This document shows, in pieces, positions 1 through 4,587 of a stretch of 4,587 nt of DNA (position 1 is the stretch's first letter; each line of letters begins with the position of its first letter). The position numbers were made by a program, and so were the translations under genes. The stretch covers positions 1 through 4,587 of the IMG/VR virus record IMGVR_UViG_2778261227_000009; one strand, 5' to 3'. The notes under the pieces were generated by a model. That model was not told where the DNA came from. It saw nothing but the letters and a program-made list of their open reading frames with translations, and did no database searches. Source of the DNA: a virus (lineage: Duplodnaviria > Heunggongvirae > Uroviricota > Caudoviricetes).

Positions 1-534
1 TCACTGATCTATCCCCCAACAGGCTAATGCGCTTTCCTGGTCACGACGAATAACCTGTCCATAGCAGTTATTTGAACTTATGCGGCAATCGCGCCCACCA
101 TCTTTTATCCACCAGCGAATCGCCTCGCATGCACCTTTACGATCACCAGCATTCAGCCGCTTATAAAACGTCGACGGAAAACACTTACCGGGGCCAATGT
201 TATAGGGACAAAATGACGCGATACCCGCTTTCTGTGGTTCCGTCAGTGATACCCGGATGTTTTTCTCCACCCATGCCAGCGCCTTATCACGTTCAATGGC
301 ATTAACCTGATTGCATTTTTCCTTCGACAGTTTCATTCCCGGTATGACGGGCTTACCATCCACCATGGTGGCACCACGACAGATGGTCCAGATACCCGCA
401 CCATCACGGTATGCCGTGGTGTGGTTACCTTCCTTTTCATTCAGAAACTGGTCGAGAATATCAGGCGCGGGCGCACCGACGGCAATCAGTGCCAGAACGG
501 CAGCCGACAGGCCGTATCTGATTTTTGCGTTCAT
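1..534 (-). CDS. rrrQ: SAR endolysin: a phage lysozyme (T4-lysozyme-like muramidase) with an N-terminal signal-anchor-release domain, of the R21/RrrQ type.
   Basis: The 177-aa ORF is complete, with ATG at 532-534 and stop at 1-3. The N-terminus, YGLSAAVLALIAVGAPAP (about nt 454-513), is Gly/Ala-rich and weakly hydrophobic, as expected of a SAR domain. The catalytic triad E35 (nt 430-432), D44 and T50 has the T4-lysozyme spacing E-x8-D-x5-T. The symbol is given by analogy to K-12 Qin RrrQ. Confidence 0.9.
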   Translation of the reverse strand: MNAKIRYGLSAAVLALIAVGAPAPDILDQFLNEKEGNHTTAYRDGAGIWTICRGATMVDGKPVIPGMKLSKEKCNQVNAIERDKALAWVEKNIRVSLTEPQKAGIASFCPYNIGPGKCFPSTFYKRLNAGDRKGACEAIRWWIKDGGRDCRISSNNCYGQVIRRDQESALACWGIDQ

Positions 535-597
535 GGATATTTATCAGGATTTATCGGTTTCTGCCCACGGACAGGTTTATCTGTTCCGGTCAGTGAC

Positions 598-948
598 TTA
601 AGGTTGTGATTCCGGAGGAGTCTTCAGAGAATCAGTAATTCTTCCTGGTAGCTTTCCTTTGTAGGTTATCCACACATTCTGCGCATCTAAAATTACGGGG
701 CGCTTTTCCGGCGACTGCTCATCCCCTTCACATAACCCGGCAGCAACATCCAGGAAGACCTGTCTGATGCTCCTTCTGGCTGCTGCCTCATAAAACTCCA
801 GCGCGGCACCTTCAACACGGTCCAGCGAGATGTCCAGGTCAAAAATTTCGCCGTCAAAGCGTTTTTTGTCCCGTAACGCTAAAGTTACCGTAACTTTATT
901 CTCAAAATTGCGGATCCCTTTCACAATCAGTTCATAGTTTTGAGTCAT
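598..948 (-). CDS. ydfR: DUF1327-family protein (YdfR-like) of unknown function, embedded between the holin and endolysin genes.
   Basis: This 116-aa ORF starts at ATG 946-948 with GGGGAGAG about 9 nt upstream, and that Shine-Dalgarno-like sequence overlaps the 3' end of the holin gene. The position between holin and lysozyme mirrors the K-12 Qin arrangement essQ-ydfR-rrrQ. The family name is recalled, not searched. Confidence 0.75.
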   Translation of the reverse strand: MTQNYELIVKGIRNFENKVTVTLALRDKKRFDGEIFDLDISLDRVEGAALEFYEAAARRSIRQVFLDVAAGLCEGDEQSPEKRPVILDAQNVWITYKGKLPGRITDSLKTPPESQP

Positions 949-952
949 TGAA

Positions 953-1168
953 TTACTCTCCCCGTGCAGCCTTACGCTTGTCTTCTCTGATTTTGAAGTA
1001 CAGATTTGTCAGATAAGTCAGGAAGCCCAGAACCAGACTCCCCAGTACACCAATCGCAGCCCACTGTGAAGGACTGACCTGATCAAGCCACTGTAAAAAC
1101 CAGTAGCCAGCACTACCTGCTGAGGTGCCATAGGCGACACCCGTTGTTAACTTATCCATGGATTTCAT
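953..1168 (-). CDS. essQ: Class II holin (pinholin) of the phage 21 S21 type, 71 aa, with a dual-start motif (Met1-Lys-Ser-Met4).
   Basis: The translation [71 protein letters not shown] has two transmembrane segments and a charged C-terminus, and closely resembles S21. The ATG at 1166-1168 is preceded by GAGGTGGGG about 2 nt upstream. The longer track ORF (to 1231) starts at GTG and would run through the upstream terminator hairpin, so it is rejected. The symbol is given by analogy to K-12 Qin EssQ. Confidence 0.85.
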
Positions 1169-1203
1169 AACCCCACCTCGCAGATGCGGGTGCTGTGTAA
1201 TGG

Positions 1204-1229
1204 AAATAAAAAGGCCACCTGACGTGGCC
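1204..1229 (-). terminator. Rho-independent terminator between the methyltransferase gene and the holin gene.
   Basis: The minus-strand RNA would be GGCCAC-GUCAG-GUGGCC followed by UUUUUAUUUCC. It begins 6 nt after the methyltransferase stop codon (1236-1238) and lies about 35 nt upstream of the holin start. Confidence 0.6.
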
Positions 1230-1235
1230 ACCAGA

Positions 1236-2288
1236 TTATTTCCCCACCAGCTCGTTTATCTCTTTCACTGTCTGATTAAACCGCTCTGACTCAAGCTCAA
1301 CACCTAAGGCCCGACGCCCCAGCGCCATTGCTGCTTTTATTGTGGAACCGGATCCCATAAAGAAATCAGCAACCAGATCACCAGGTCGACTACTGGCATT
1401 GATTATTTGCCGGAGCATATCCGCCGGTTTCTCGCACGGATGTTTACCCGGGTAGAACTGAACGGGCTTATGCGTCCAGACATCGGTATAAGGCACGGAG
1501 ACTGATACGGAGAAATAGCGCCGGAGAGATTTAAACTCATCCAGCAATTCAGAATATTTGCGATTCAGTGAATCATAAGATGCCACCAGCTGGTGGTGTG
1601 GTTGTTCCAGTTGTTGTTCCTGAAACTTCTCTGCCGCTATACGGGAAAACAGTGCCTGTAACTTCCGATAGTCAGCCTCATTCGGCAACTGCCACTGACT
1701 GGCACCAAACCAGTGGGAAACCATATTTTTCTTACCTGTGGCTTCGGCAATTTGTTTTGCCGTTATACCCAGTTCGGCACGAGCATCCCTGAAATACGAT
1801 ATCAGCGGTGCCATTATGTGCTGTTTGAGTTCCCTTTCTTTTGCTGCATAGCCGTCACTTTTGCCGCGATATGGCCCCTGGTAATGTTCAGCAAACAGAA
1901 CGCGCTCTGTGGCAGGAAAATATGCGCGCAGACTTTCTTTATTACACCCATTCCAACGTCCGGACGGCTTCGCCCAGATGATATGGTTAAGCACGTTGAA
2001 ACGTTCACGCATCATGATCTCAATATCAGATGCCAGGCGATGCCCACAGAACAGGTAAAGGCTTCCGGCAGGTTTTAACACCCGCCAGAACTGGGCCAGA
2101 CAGTGGTCCAGCCACTTAAGGTAATCTTCGTCCCCTTTCCACTGATTGTCCCAGCCGTTGGGCTTCACTTTGAAGTACGGCGGATCGGTAACTATCAGGT
2201 CAATGGAATCATCAGGCAGGGACTGAATAAAATGCAGGCAATCAGCGTTGATTAAATCAACACTGTTTATTTTTACAGTATTTTTCAT
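1236..2288 (-). CDS. Solitary DNA methyltransferase of the beta-class amino-methyltransferase family (N6-adenine or N4-cytosine; N6_N4_Mtase family).
   Basis: The 350-aa protein has motif IV DPPY at residues 35-38 (nt 2175-2186, codons checked by hand), HPCEKP at residues 283-288, and the SAM-binding motif I FFMGSGST at residues 309-316 (nt 1341-1364). Motif IV lying N-terminal to motif I defines the beta class. Between the motifs is a long insert of roughly residues 140-270 containing an HTH-like stretch ([14 protein letters not shown]), which is the presumed target-recognition region. No restriction endonuclease partner is visible in the window. Confidence 0.9.
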
Positions 2289-2437
2289 GGATCAGTAAGC
2301 GTAACTCTGGTAGGCTCACTCTGCTTTTGCGCTAAAGCAGTGGGCCATGGTTCGCTTGTGACCAGTAAGCATGAGCGAATGGCTGGCAGGTGCTACCAAC
2401 ACCCACCAGCCGCCCATTTTCACAAATTAAAAGCCCT

Positions 2438-2632
2438 TCATTGCTGAAGGCGTCTGTAACAGCCGAACTGGTTATCTGCCAGCCCCGCCATAACCAGCTG
2501 GGTCAGTATTAACTGACAGCGTTCGCGTGAAAGGTATGTGTTTTGTGCTATCTCCCCGACTGTTGCCGGTTTGCCGTTTAATTCATTAAAAACAACTTTC
2601 GCCGTTTCTGTCATATCTTGCGGTTTTAGCAT
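2438..2632 (-). CDS. Small (64 aa) winged-helix DNA-binding protein resembling the PapI/FaeA family of regulators.
   Basis: The ORF starts at ATG 2630-2632 with AAGGT about 9 nt upstream. The segment GKPATVGEIAQNTYLSRERCQLILTQLVMAGLA resembles the PapI/FaeA core (G-K-x-A-x-x-x-E-I-A ... Y ... R ... L ... AG) as I recall it. No HMM search was run. Confidence 0.5.
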   Translation of the reverse strand: MLKPQDMTETAKVVFNELNGKPATVGEIAQNTYLSRERCQLILTQLVMAGLADNQFGCYRRLQQ

Positions 2633-2753
2633 GTCTTTTTACCTTCATGGTTAACATGACATACCAATAACTCTTGTCTAAAAAGCCAGCAAGATAAAAA
2701 GTCAGTATTCACGACCACCAGCGTGTTTACCGTACTGCACCAATGTTTAATTT

Positions 2754-2777
2754 ATAAAAAAACCGCGAGAACGCGGT
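2754..2777 (-). terminator. Rho-independent terminator downstream of the 176-aa ORF.
   Basis: The minus-strand RNA would be ACCGCG-UUCU-CGCGGU followed by UUUUUUAUAAAUU: a 6-bp GC-rich stem, a 4-nt loop and a U6 tract. It lies 35 nt after the ORF stop at 2813-2815. Confidence 0.6.
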
Positions 2778-2812
2778 AAGTATTGTTAAAAAAAACAGTA
2801 ATTTCACTCAAC

Positions 2813-3343
2813 TTATTTAATACATTCTTTTGCTTGCGCATAATAAATTTTATGAGTATTAGCAAGCTTAACGAAGTTATACTTAACTGCCCCTAACAGG
2901 GTTCCAACTCTTGTATGCCCTTCCATTAAATGAAGCCCTGTTGTATTACTTTTCAGCAAAGCTCGATCTATAAAAAATGGAGGTTTGCACCATGTGCCAA
3001 AATTACACCAATGCGCTTTTATTTCATCATCCATAAATACATCGCCTTTACGGGTTGTGAAATCTTCAACGACCTCATGCAAAAAATCAGGGTAAGTAGC
3101 ATTATCCCCGATAGTTAAAAAATTTTTAGTGGGAAGTTCAATCAATTTCCATTCGATTTGGTCAATATTAAGATTCCCATAAAGCTCCTGAAATCTGTCA
3201 TAACCTGCCAATCCATAATAAATCTCCTGAATTACAGGAGTGGGTGCGGCGATAGAATATTGCTCACGAAGTATTCTTTCAGCCTCAGGAGCTTTAAATA
3301 TGGGTCTTTCTGAGAAAATAGGCAAAAGATCTCGGTATAACAT
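2813..3343 (-). CDS. Hypothetical protein of 176 aa encoded by an AT-rich, compositionally foreign gene (cargo/moron). Its function is unknown.
   Basis: This is an ATG-initiated 531-nt ORF with GGGGA 7 nt upstream of the start. Manual counts give about 30% GC for 3121-3180, against about 55% for 1381-1440 in the neighbouring methyltransferase gene. The translation has no hydrophobic signal peptide or membrane segment. An intrinsic terminator follows the stop codon. I do not recognise the protein family. Confidence 0.65.
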   Translation of the reverse strand: MLYRDLLPIFSERPIFKAPEAERILREQYSIAAPTPVIQEIYYGLAGYDRFQELYGNLNIDQIEWKLIELPTKNFLTIGDNATYPDFLHEVVEDFTTRKGDVFMDDEIKAHWCNFGTWCKPPFFIDRALLKSNTTGLHLMEGHTRVGTLLGAVKYNFVKLANTHKIYYAQAKECIK

Positions 3344-3372
3344 CCATATCCCCGTGTAAGAAAAAATAATTT

Positions 3373-3392
3373 AACCCGCTCGGCGGCGGGTT
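3373..3392 (-). terminator. GC-rich stem-loop (AACCCGC / GCGGGTT, 7-bp stem) between the candidate promoter and the 176-aa ORF. It may be a tR'-like terminator or a 5'-leader hairpin.
   Basis: A perfect 7-bp inverted repeat is visible in the sequence. On the minus strand it is followed by AAATTATTTTTT, so the U-tract is not directly adjacent to the stem and terminator strength is uncertain. Confidence 0.3.
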
Positions 3393-3437
3393 CTTGGACT
3401 TATCAACGGTAGACATACAAAGCCCATCGTTGGGAAA

Positions 3438-3466
3438 ATCTTATCCATGTTTTTTGAGAAATGCAA
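3438..3466 (-). promoter_or_regulatory. Candidate sigma70 promoter immediately downstream of Q, a possible pR'-like late promoter: -35 TTGCAT, 17-nt spacer, -10 TAAGAT on the minus strand.
   Basis: The minus-strand sequence is ATGCTTGCAT TTCTCAAAAAACATGGA TAAGAT TTTCCCA, read directly. It begins about 31 nt after the Q stop codon, which is where lambdoid pR' normally lies. This is a consensus match only, with no experimental support. Confidence 0.3.
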
Positions 3467-3497
3467 GCATCATGTCGCCATCTTCGGTGAAAATCAC

Positions 3498-4250
3498 TTA
3501 TCTCGTCACCTTTCTCAATTGTGCTTCAGCGTAAGCTTCTTCCTGCCAGCACTTTGTAACCAGTTTATCAATGACATCTGCATACCCCTTGTACCACTGA
3601 TAATCCGTCAGGTTCGGTACCAGTTTCTGGACATGATGCCGCGCCAGTGTGGTCGGTAAACGGCTAAACCGATTTCCATTACAACGCCCACAAATCTTAT
3701 AAACCGGCGCGCCATGAAGCCGGGTTCTTTTTTCATCCAGGACAATACCTTTACCCTTACACCCTCTGCACGCTGTGCTGACTTCTCCCTTACCATGACA
3801 ATGCTGACATAGTTCCTTCACCCACTCTTCCTTGATAACAGATTCCCCGCTTCTGGAGTGTTTTACCACCTCGCGCAATACATCATGAAATCCAGTACCA
3901 GCACAATGCTCACAGCGAGCCTTACTTGCCGCAGACCTGGAATAATCAGCAAATGCAAAATTCACAAGGTAAGGGATGATCTGTAACCGGGTTTCTTCAC
4001 TCAATTTATTCAATGTCGGGTTATCCAGTGCCATCGCGTAATTGAGCAGACCTTCAATCGCAAACTGAGGATCCTGAACACCAACTTTTGCCAGAAATAA
4101 GGCAAAACCCAGTGGTGCTTTCGACTGCACCATCCCCTGCGCAGCCATCACATCCGTAATCGTTAAACCACCAGAGCCTGTCGCCGGTGCGTCATCGCTC
4201 AATTTTGGAGATTTTGGGGAGTAATATTTTGGTAAGGCTTCAAGGTTCAT
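3498..4250 (-). CDS. quuQ: Late-gene antiterminator Q (QuuQ-like, about 250 aa) with four CxxCxGxG zinc-finger-like repeats.
   Basis: The protein is Cys/His-rich with four DnaJ-like repeats (CEHCAGTG, CQHCHGKG, CRGCKGKG, CGRCNGNR). It sits immediately upstream of the cargo and lysis genes, as Q does in lambdoid phages. The track ORF (3498..4292) begins with a GTG codon and would overlap the upstream gene by 29 nt. The first ATG, at 4248-4250 (MNLEALPKYY...), is preceded by GTGGAGAACGAGC as a Shine-Dalgarno-like sequence and leaves a 13-nt gap to the upstream stop. The symbol is given by analogy to K-12 Qin. Confidence 0.7.
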   Translation of the reverse strand: MNLEALPKYYSPKSPKLSDDAPATGSGGLTITDVMAAQGMVQSKAPLGFALFLAKVGVQDPQFAIEGLLNYAMALDNPTLNKLSEETRLQIIPYLVNFAFADYSRSAASKARCEHCAGTGFHDVLREVVKHSRSGESVIKEEWVKELCQHCHGKGEVSTACRGCKGKGIVLDEKRTRLHGAPVYKICGRCNGNRFSRLPTTLARHHVQKLVPNLTDYQWYKGYADVIDKLVTKCWQEEAYAEAQLRKVTR

Positions 4251-4263
4251 GCTCGTTCTCCAC

Positions 4264-4587
4264 TTACGCCAGTACGCCAATTGCCAGCGCACGATCGATA
4301 AAACGAAATATCAGCTCCAGCTGAGAGCCATACTTCTCTTCAAATGCCACGGTATCCGCATGCAGCTCGTCGTGATGCTTTCTGCACAAAGGCAACACAA
4401 AGAGGTCATGCGCTTTTGTACCCATTCCCCCCTGACCGTGGCCTATCAGGTGGTGGGGATCATCAGCAGGTTTTCCACAACATGCACACGGCTGTGTCTT
4501 AACCCAGCGTGTGTACTTTTCATTAACCCAGCGGCGACGTTTTGGGCGTAACATAAAAGACTCCGGCGACTCCGGATCCACTTTCAG
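4264..4587 (-). CDS. C-terminal part of a phage nin-region protein with an HNH-like Cys/His motif (DUF968 / YdfU-like). The 5' end is truncated by the window edge.
   Basis: The reading frame is open to the window edge, with no stop between 4582 and 4587, and the apparent first codon at 4579-4581 is GTG, so the gene most likely starts upstream of the window. The translation contains PCACCGKPADDPHHLIGHGQGGMGTKAHD...LPLCRKHHDELH, a zinc-ribbon/HNH-like motif. The stop is at 4264-4266, 13 nt upstream of the Q start. Naming the family DUF968 is from memory and has moderate reliability. Confidence 0.65.
   Translation of the reverse strand: MKVDPESPESFMLRPKRRRWVNEKYTRWVKTQPCACCGKPADDPHHLIGHGQGGMGTKAHDLFVLPLCRKHHDELHADTVAFEEKYGSQLELIFRFIDRALAIGVLA

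Follow-up and report, generated by a model that had tools for sequence, protein, structure and literature searches.

The window analysed here, a stretch of 4,587 nucleotides (positions 1 to 4,587 of the IMG/VR virus record IMGVR_UViG_2778261227_000009; Caudoviricetes), is part of an Escherichia coli lambdoid prophage and shows 100% identity to strain C311. Between the antiterminator gene Q and the lysis genes, it encodes a protein of 176 amino acids (aa), the open reading frame of which (ORF176; 2813–3343, minus strand, ATG at 3343–3341) is confirmed here as a genuine protein-coding gene, conserved and under purifying selection. ORF176 is a one-gene, swappable accessory cassette, comprising a ribosome-binding site, the gene and a terminator, without a promoter, that has recombined directly behind the stem of the late terminator tR'. 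Structural models predict that the product is a highly divergent, stand-alone member of the ParB/sulfiredoxin (ParB-CTPase) fold which has kept the GxxR phosphate-binding motif. The overall reading that we favour, with confidence that is about evenly balanced, is that of a late-operon cassette encoding a stand-alone, nucleoside triphosphate (NTP)-binding conflict protein of the ParB/sulfiredoxin (ParB/Srx) fold. An earlier interpretation of the same DNA, hereafter the original prediction, was partly supported.

The ORF176 cassette and its insertion site

The inserted cassette (2750–3372, minus strand; ~620 bp, 35% GC) holds the ribosome-binding site, ORF176, a 3' untranslated region (UTR) and the terminator, and is missing from empty-site prophages. 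Its boundaries, obtained from the empty-site alignment and the ends of BLAST blocks, are accurate to within a few bases: blocks common to thousands of other E. coli prophages end at window positions 2764–2769 and 3373. In the empty-site prophage L012, Q and the intergenic region are followed directly by the winged-helix gene and then the methylase. In L013 (E. coli Esc4), the site corresponding to window positions 2750–3372 is occupied by other cargo (3067–3492): an ORF of 141 aa that has no Pfam match, begins with a lipoprotein-like N-terminus and lies between two copies of the tR' hairpin AACCCGCCACTGAGCGGGTT. The original prediction of an accessory, AT-rich gene at the Q-to-lysis hotspot is thus borne out by the absence of the gene from near-identical prophages and by its replacement in L013.

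The cassette's own intrinsic terminator (2754–2777, minus strand) is composed of the hairpin ACCGCGTTCTCGCGGT (2777–2762) followed by a T-run; it is identical in the second E. coli allele, and the fold of the 3' UTR has a z-score of -3.6. At the other end, a Shine-Dalgarno-like GGGGA (3349–3353, minus strand), read from the sequence, lies 5 nt 5' of the ATG, and the 29 nt of the minus strand (3343–3372) between the tR' stem and the ATG contain nothing that resembles a promoter, so that ORF176 depends on pR' and Q. The gene had been described as a self-contained moron bracketed by two hairpins. Both hairpins exist, the downstream one being a clean intrinsic terminator, but the upstream stem-loop belongs to the phage as its late terminator tR' and is not cargo, as follows from the alignment to phage lambda, in which the late promoter pR' can be recognised; empty-site phages carry this stem-loop as well. 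Together with the missing promoter, this makes the term 'self-contained' inapplicable. Classical lambdoid morons are extra genes with their own promoter, their own terminator and a foreign composition, and ORF176 shares all of these features except the promoter: it is present or absent between conserved flanks, as seen in the empty-site alignment, ends in its own terminator and differs in GC content from its surroundings (36.5% versus 48.7%).

This contrast in composition is real, albeit smaller than the 30–35% against 50–55% estimated originally: the GC content is 36.5% for ORF176 (28% at third codon positions), 35.3% for the cassette, 48.7% for the rest of the window and 47–52% for the neighbouring genes. 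Known cargo of the lambdoid Q-to-S region includes stx in Stx phages and cspB/cspF in Qin. Like ORF176, these genes lie directly 3' of pR'/tR' and 5' of the lysis cassette, are foreign in composition and are variably present. The ORF176 cassette differs from that cargo in encoding an unrelated protein, in lacking its own promoter and in an insertion point that parts the tR' hairpin from its U-tract.

The evidence that ORF176 is a gene comes from its length and its substitution pattern. The longest stop-free run in the cassette spans 185 codons, a length reached in 0 of 5000 shuffles (mean 65, maximum 172), and the chance of 176 open codons is P ~1.8e-6. The ratio of nonsynonymous to synonymous substitution rates (dN/dS) is 0.39 between the two E. 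coli alleles, and comparison of the E. coli, Salmonella and Hafnia homologues gave a saturated proportion of synonymous differences (pS 0.77–0.80) against a proportion of nonsynonymous differences (pN) of 0.23–0.37, a pattern of the coding type, on which the original prediction had made its case depend.

A near-identical tR'-type hairpin, AACCCGC(N5-6)GCGGGTT, was observed in prophages from five genera, the Q proteins of which belong to two unrelated families (copies at window positions 3373–3392, L029:4951–4972, L034:4949–4970, L006:7425–7445 and L032:4958–4975). This recurrent hairpin falls at mosaic boundaries and may serve as a joint at which cargo is exchanged by recombination.

A divergent protein family and its predicted fold

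The sole family match of the ORF176 protein is PHROG 8867 (E 8e-96), a family of unknown function, and scans against Pfam, NCBIfam and PADLOC gave no match. The earlier statement that the protein matches no family therefore holds for curated families but not for PHROG 8867 and ~320–350 uncharacterised clusters. An exhaustive profile search recovered 346 cluster representatives, and a second search 319 proteins, none with a Pfam domain or an informative name. Pfam scans of 17 and 109 relatives produced weak sub-threshold matches only, to CUE in 7 and DUF1281 in 4. Longer relatives (250–360 aa) are also without a Pfam domain, and their C-terminal extension resembles only YozE/UPF0346, a family of unknown function, the literature on which was uninformative for the present one. 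Neither the protein accessions nor the PHROG number occurred in any paper found.

The protein is mildly acidic (isoelectric point 6.0) and soluble, with no hydrophobic or membrane segment, in agreement with the cytoplasmic location originally predicted. An AlphaFold2 (AF2) model, with a predicted local distance difference test score (pLDDT) of 88, shows a single globular unit in which residues 101–110 form the block of lowest confidence (pLDDT 69); a second AF2 model reached a pLDDT of 92.6. In the predicted layout, an N-terminal helical region (residues 1–55) is followed by a strand (63–71), a helix (106–115), the loop G-T-W-x-x-P-P (116–122), two strands (123–126 and 137–141), the stretch E141-G142-H143-T144-R145 opening a helix (143–154), and a last strand (163–171). 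In a Foldseek search against the BFVD collection of viral models, ParB/Sulfiredoxin proteins came out on top, with modest scores and against structures that are themselves predicted.

Conservation among 109 relatives points to the same fold. R145 is the sole invariant residue (109/109), with G142 kept in 107, H143 in 92 and T144 in 91; E141, G142, W65, W112, T117, W118, P122 and H164 are each at least 90% conserved. The GxxR motif formed by G142 and R145 falls at the junction of strand 137–141 and helix 143–154, which is the position of the P motif (Box II) at the start of the helix after strand 3. Box II is defined as GxxR, with a conserved arginine in a pocket opening the helix after strand 3, and in characterised ParB-fold proteins, replacement of this arginine by alanine abolishes NTP binding (PMC12704722). 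The equivalence of helix 106–115 and the G-T-W-x-x-P-P loop, which precede strand 123–126, to Box I (the C motif), a helix and base-contacting loop ahead of strand 2, is suggested by topology only.

Sequence profiles did not arrive at this fold. When trimmed, an hhalign comparison with a PF02195 family placed LHLVEGHTR in register with IIAGHGR, but the match was not significant (P 0.0035–0.0048, probability 7–9%); the default, untrimmed alignment paired the wrong region and was discarded. Remote-homology and structure searches, which the original prediction had proposed, thus diverged in outcome, with Foldseek pointing to ParB/Sulfiredoxin and sequence-profile searches remaining below significance, so that the assignment rests on the predicted structure and the motif.

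Sulfiredoxin resembles the ORF176 protein in being a small, single-domain ParB/Srx-fold protein with a core of similar size, and human sulfiredoxin shares with it the arrangement of a PP-strand followed by G-x-H/C-R. The sulfiredoxin motif GGCHR carries the catalytic cysteine; in contrast, ORF176 has no catalytic cysteine, the equivalent stretch being EGHTR, and is cargo of prokaryotic mobile elements rather than a peroxiredoxin repair enzyme. An hhalign comparison with human sulfiredoxin was not significant. Canonical ParB proteins of ParABS systems have a central helix-turn-helix (HTH) domain, a C-terminal dimerisation domain, the ParA-binding motif LG(R/K)GL and a parA partner, whereas ORF176 is a single globular unit without LG(R/K)GL, and no ParA gene was found in its prophage neighbourhood.

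Parallels also exist with the orphan ParB-CTPase-fold proteins of mobile elements, which, like ORF176, have a predicted core of four strands and two helices, a GxxR motif with the conserved arginine after strand 3 and a helix with a proline-ended loop before strand 2, and which occur on prophages and plasmids without ParA (PMC12704722). ORF176 differs from these proteins in escaping PF02195 and every other curated profile, in its family-specific N-terminal helical region and ~35-residue insert, in the tryptophan signature W65/W112/W118, in having E-G-H-T-R in place of GERR, GHGR or DGQQR, and in lacking any fused or neighbouring DNA-binding or enzymatic domain. DdrB-like solo ParB domains of phages and prophages (Iyer et al. 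2017, PMC5512222) and Osa are likewise stand-alone ParB folds encoded among prophage late genes, and have been proposed to be NTP-regulated DNases or NTP sensors in inter-element conflict. Direct comparison with the N-terminal domain of P1 DdrB gave no match (BLASTP E > 6; hhalign probability 0.07%), and the ORF176 family, unlike the DdrB-like domains, is also widespread outside phages.

Distribution, expression and prophage setting

Homologues of ORF176 (47–58% identity) are found in prophages of Salmonella, Hafnia, Klebsiella, Enterobacter and Citrobacter, always as the first gene past Q, which shows that the gene recurs at the hotspot. This position holds in six enterobacterial genera including E. 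coli, with Q proteins from two unrelated families and holins from at least three: Q belongs to PF06323 in the other five genera, as opposed to PF03589 in E. coli, and the holins and endolysins differ too. A methylase lies near the homologue in only two of the six genera, E. coli and Hafnia; what is conserved is the position after Q, and not the link to the methylase. Among 5426 complete E. coli genomes, ORF176 is carried by 90, as a single chromosomal copy every time. A few truncated or frameshifted copies of the family were also encountered (P0003, P0005 and P0007).

Two further observations concern the prophages with homologues. A 197-aa reverse-strand ORF without a Pfam match lies near the homologue in Hafnia (L006:6622–7215), where it is located between the homologue and the tR'-like hairpin, and in Klebsiella (L029:6967–7560). 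The Enterobacter prophage L032 encodes, just upstream of terminase (8003–9647), a canonical ParB_N (PF02195) protein beside a TAGT-family protein, a pair that looks like a DNA-modification module.

Beyond prophages, the ~320–350 clusters span Proteobacteria, Actinobacteria, Firmicutes, Planctomycetes and other groups, with no annotated member. A profile search of genome contigs with a subset alignment yielded 12 loci, and no conserved neighbour or partner gene was found among 13 distant loci; the neighbours include transposase genes of insertion sequences, integrase genes, MazF, ParDE, a STAND-type ATPase and a DUF5906 primase. In a Candidatus Accumulibacter metagenome-assembled genome (L025:4084–12418), the family gene is embedded in a defence island, with a complete type II-A retron on one side and a type I restriction–modification system on the other, the order being retron II-A (NDT effector and reverse transcriptase), the ORF176-family gene, a YgjP-like metallopeptidase, the type I restriction enzyme and a HEC-05-like protein; this homologue matches no PADLOC family at E ≤ 0.001. 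Vibrio members reside, on both chromosome and plasmid, in arrays of one-gene units spaced by 133-nt repeats of the integron-cassette type. One 3.4-kb contig of such an integron-like array from Vibrio parahaemolyticus (L037) contains two copies of the family gene (155–685 and 2664–3194), with copies of the 133-nt repeat family recurring along its length. A family member is present on 29 plasmids, 20 of them from Streptomyces, one is on a conjugative element and one lies two genes from a Shedu gene; three contexts (L044, L017 and L019) were uninformative. Family members are in every case lone cargo genes, whether on plasmids and conjugative elements, in integron cassettes and defence islands or at prophage hotspots.

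Alignment to lambda pR' places the late promoter of the window at 3438–3466 (minus strand), with a -35 element TTGCAT (3466–3461), a 17-nt spacer and a -10 element TAAGAT (3443–3438). A -10-like AACGAT (3426–3431, minus strand) lies in the initially transcribed region, which follows the -10 element as CAACGATGGG and is identical to that of lambda pR'; we take AACGAT to be the sigma-70-dependent pause element at which Q is loaded, as in lambda. The phage late terminator tR' follows as the stem-loop AACCCGCCGCCGAGCGGGTT (3373–3392, minus strand; 7 pairs, -11.7 kcal/mol). The tail after the tR' stem reads AAATTATTTTTT (3372–3361) in ORF176 carriers versus TTTTTTTG in empty-site phages. The stem itself has a folding energy of -13.5 kcal/mol at the empty site, whereas the second E. 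coli allele (L014), with two uncompensated changes in the stem, reaches only -6.8 kcal/mol.

In the proposed scenario, ORF176 would be transcribed from pR' and strongly expressed upon antitermination by Q, which drives read-through at tR' and at the cassette terminator. Insertion of the cassette would have separated the tR' hairpin from its U-tract, and, with the U-tract removed, the first canonical terminator past pR' would now sit behind ORF176. Lambda pR' is constitutive, so that with such an arrangement, expression of ORF176 in the lysogen would be possible, and in this E. coli lineage, the sequence of the region suggests that expression in the lysogen is probably leaky. In Salmonella and Hafnia, too, the stretch from Q to the homologue contains no canonical terminator. 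By contrast, an intact tR'-type terminator precedes the ATG by ~30 nt in Klebsiella, Enterobacter and Citrobacter. Given that the terminator is intact in some genera and missing in others, late, Q-dependent expression would be the common denominator, with leakiness being lineage-specific.

All genes of the window are on the minus strand, in the order DUF968 protein, antiterminator Q (3498–4292, minus strand; Pfam Antiterm PF03589, annotated length 250 aa), ORF176, a 64-aa winged-helix protein, a 350-aa N6_N4 DNA methyltransferase, a P21-type holin, a YdfR/DUF1327 protein and lysozyme. The winged-helix protein (2438–2632, minus strand) belongs to PHROG 331, has weak TrmB/MarR-like matches and precedes the orphan methyltransferase (1236–2288, minus strand), the methylase domain of which contains a ~90-residue insert with an HTH_3-like stretch. 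The stretch encoding these two proteins has matches in >2400 E. coli genomes, versus the 90 with ORF176. Upstream extension of the holin frame (953–1231, minus strand) to a GTG gives 92 aa, compared with 71 aa in the RefSeq annotation. No Rfam families or tRNAs were found in the window.

Possible roles of the ORF176 protein

Known members of the ParB/Srx fold bind or hydrolyse NTPs, phosphorylate substrates or nick DNA. Judging from the model and the retained GxxR motif, the ORF176 protein most likely binds an NTP, and it would do so, possibly with hydrolysis, working as a single protein. Its lone-cargo lifestyle in mobile elements and defence islands implies that the role is most likely in conflict between mobile elements and hosts, whether phage against phage or phage against host. 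Within that range, we consider exclusion of, or defence against, other phages more likely than counter-defence because the relatives sit in integron arrays and defence islands, whereas the late-operon position leaves room for a lytic-phase role.

Several results weigh against this interpretation. The ParB/Srx fold was not reached by any sequence-profile method, be it Pfam scans of ORF176 and 109 relatives, profiles of PDB structures, which matched at chance level, or hhalign. Of 28 ParB-fold proteins purified for a published survey, 17 gave no sign of NTP binding in vitro (PMC12704722), so that the GxxR motif is no guarantee of such binding. PADLOC-DB v2 assigned ORF176 to no defence family even at E ≤ 1, and the case for defence is one of guilt by association, drawn from ~20 contexts, some of which are uninformative. 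Finally, in Klebsiella, Enterobacter and Citrobacter, the gene stands behind an intact tR'-type terminator, which points to late, Q-dependent expression rather than to expression in the lysogen and agrees less well with a role in protecting the lysogen.

This last observation leads to the strongest alternative, which we nevertheless regard as unlikely, namely, that the protein is made only after Q acts and then aids the phage, for instance by counter-defence: it could bind or destroy an immune-signalling nucleotide, deplete or sense the NTP pool, nick host or rival DNA, or be packaged and injected like other phage ParB-like domains. The gene is indeed the first of the late transcript in all six genera, three of which shield it by the terminator just mentioned. 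Moreover, solo ParB-like domains described from late-gene contexts of prophages have been predicted to act as DNases under NTP control or as NTP sensors (PMC5512222), and prophage-enriched ParB-fold fusions have been suggested to act in anti-defence (PMC12704722). However, E. coli, Salmonella and Hafnia have no canonical terminator shielding the gene from pR', the protein shows no similarity to the P1 DdrB-type ParB domain, and the non-phage relatives occur in chromosomal integron arrays, in defence islands and beside toxin-antitoxin genes, sites commoner for defence than for counter-defence genes.

The remaining explanations all appear improbable, in varying degree. ORF176 might be an accessory subunit that loads or regulates the methylase, that is, a split version of the prophage fusions between ParB domains and N6_N4 methylases. 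Phages often encode fusions of a ParB fold to a PF01555 methylase (PMC12704722), and ORF176 lies upstream of the winged-helix protein and the 350-aa methylase, an arrangement of three genes found in Hafnia as well; yet the latter two genes are far commoner without ORF176 (>2400 E. coli genomes versus 90), including at the empty site in L012, no such methylase lies between Q and the lysis genes in Salmonella, Klebsiella, Enterobacter or Citrobacter, and distant relatives have no conserved neighbour at all, which makes this role very unlikely. Slightly less credible still is a modulator of late transcription acting with Q, RNA polymerase or the pR' leader: the adjacency to Q and pR' is invariable in six genera, but it extends to two Q families that are unrelated (PF03589 and PF06323), phages with an empty site function without ORF176, and the majority of the family is found in non-phage contexts without Q. 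Even further down we place a non-functional or decaying ORF hitch-hiking in an AT-rich insert. The protein has no known function, and a few copies are truncated or frameshifted, as noted above, but the substitution pattern across genera is that of purifying selection, core residues are kept across phyla, the gene is intact in 90/90 complete E. coli carriers (≥95% identity, full length) and both AF2 models are confident. The least probable of all, and in effect refuted by the lack of conservation, is the PD-(D/E)xK nuclease that the original prediction had tentatively read from P85-D86 ... D106-E107-x-K109. These five residues exist in ORF176; among the 109 relatives, however, position 109 is mostly V, A, R or I, position 106 mostly P, K or E, and position 85 is not conserved, the segment includes the block of lowest model confidence (residues 101–110), and the fold matches are to ParB/Srx rather than to the restriction-endonuclease fold.

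Returning to the stand-alone ParB/Srx-fold conflict protein, a more far-reaching version of this reading, which we put forward only tentatively and think less probable than the general one, is that ORF176 founds an unrecognised family of single-protein immunity against phages (or mobile elements), built on a cryptic ParB/Srx NTPase fold. Such a family would travel as a promoter-less cassette between late-operon hotspots of prophages, integron arrays, plasmids and defence islands, and its expression would be constitutive here through a disabled tR'. Separation of the hairpin from its U-tract could turn a Q-dependent site into one that is expressed in the lysogen. The locus illustrates a concrete route by which cargo may enter lambdoid late operons, namely, recombination at the conserved tR' hairpin. 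If the predicted fold is right, the ParB-CTPase/Srx fold extends beyond the reach of profile-based surveys. With its strictly single-gene, mobile-cargo lifestyle, the family is a well-defined candidate for defence or exclusion of a new kind.

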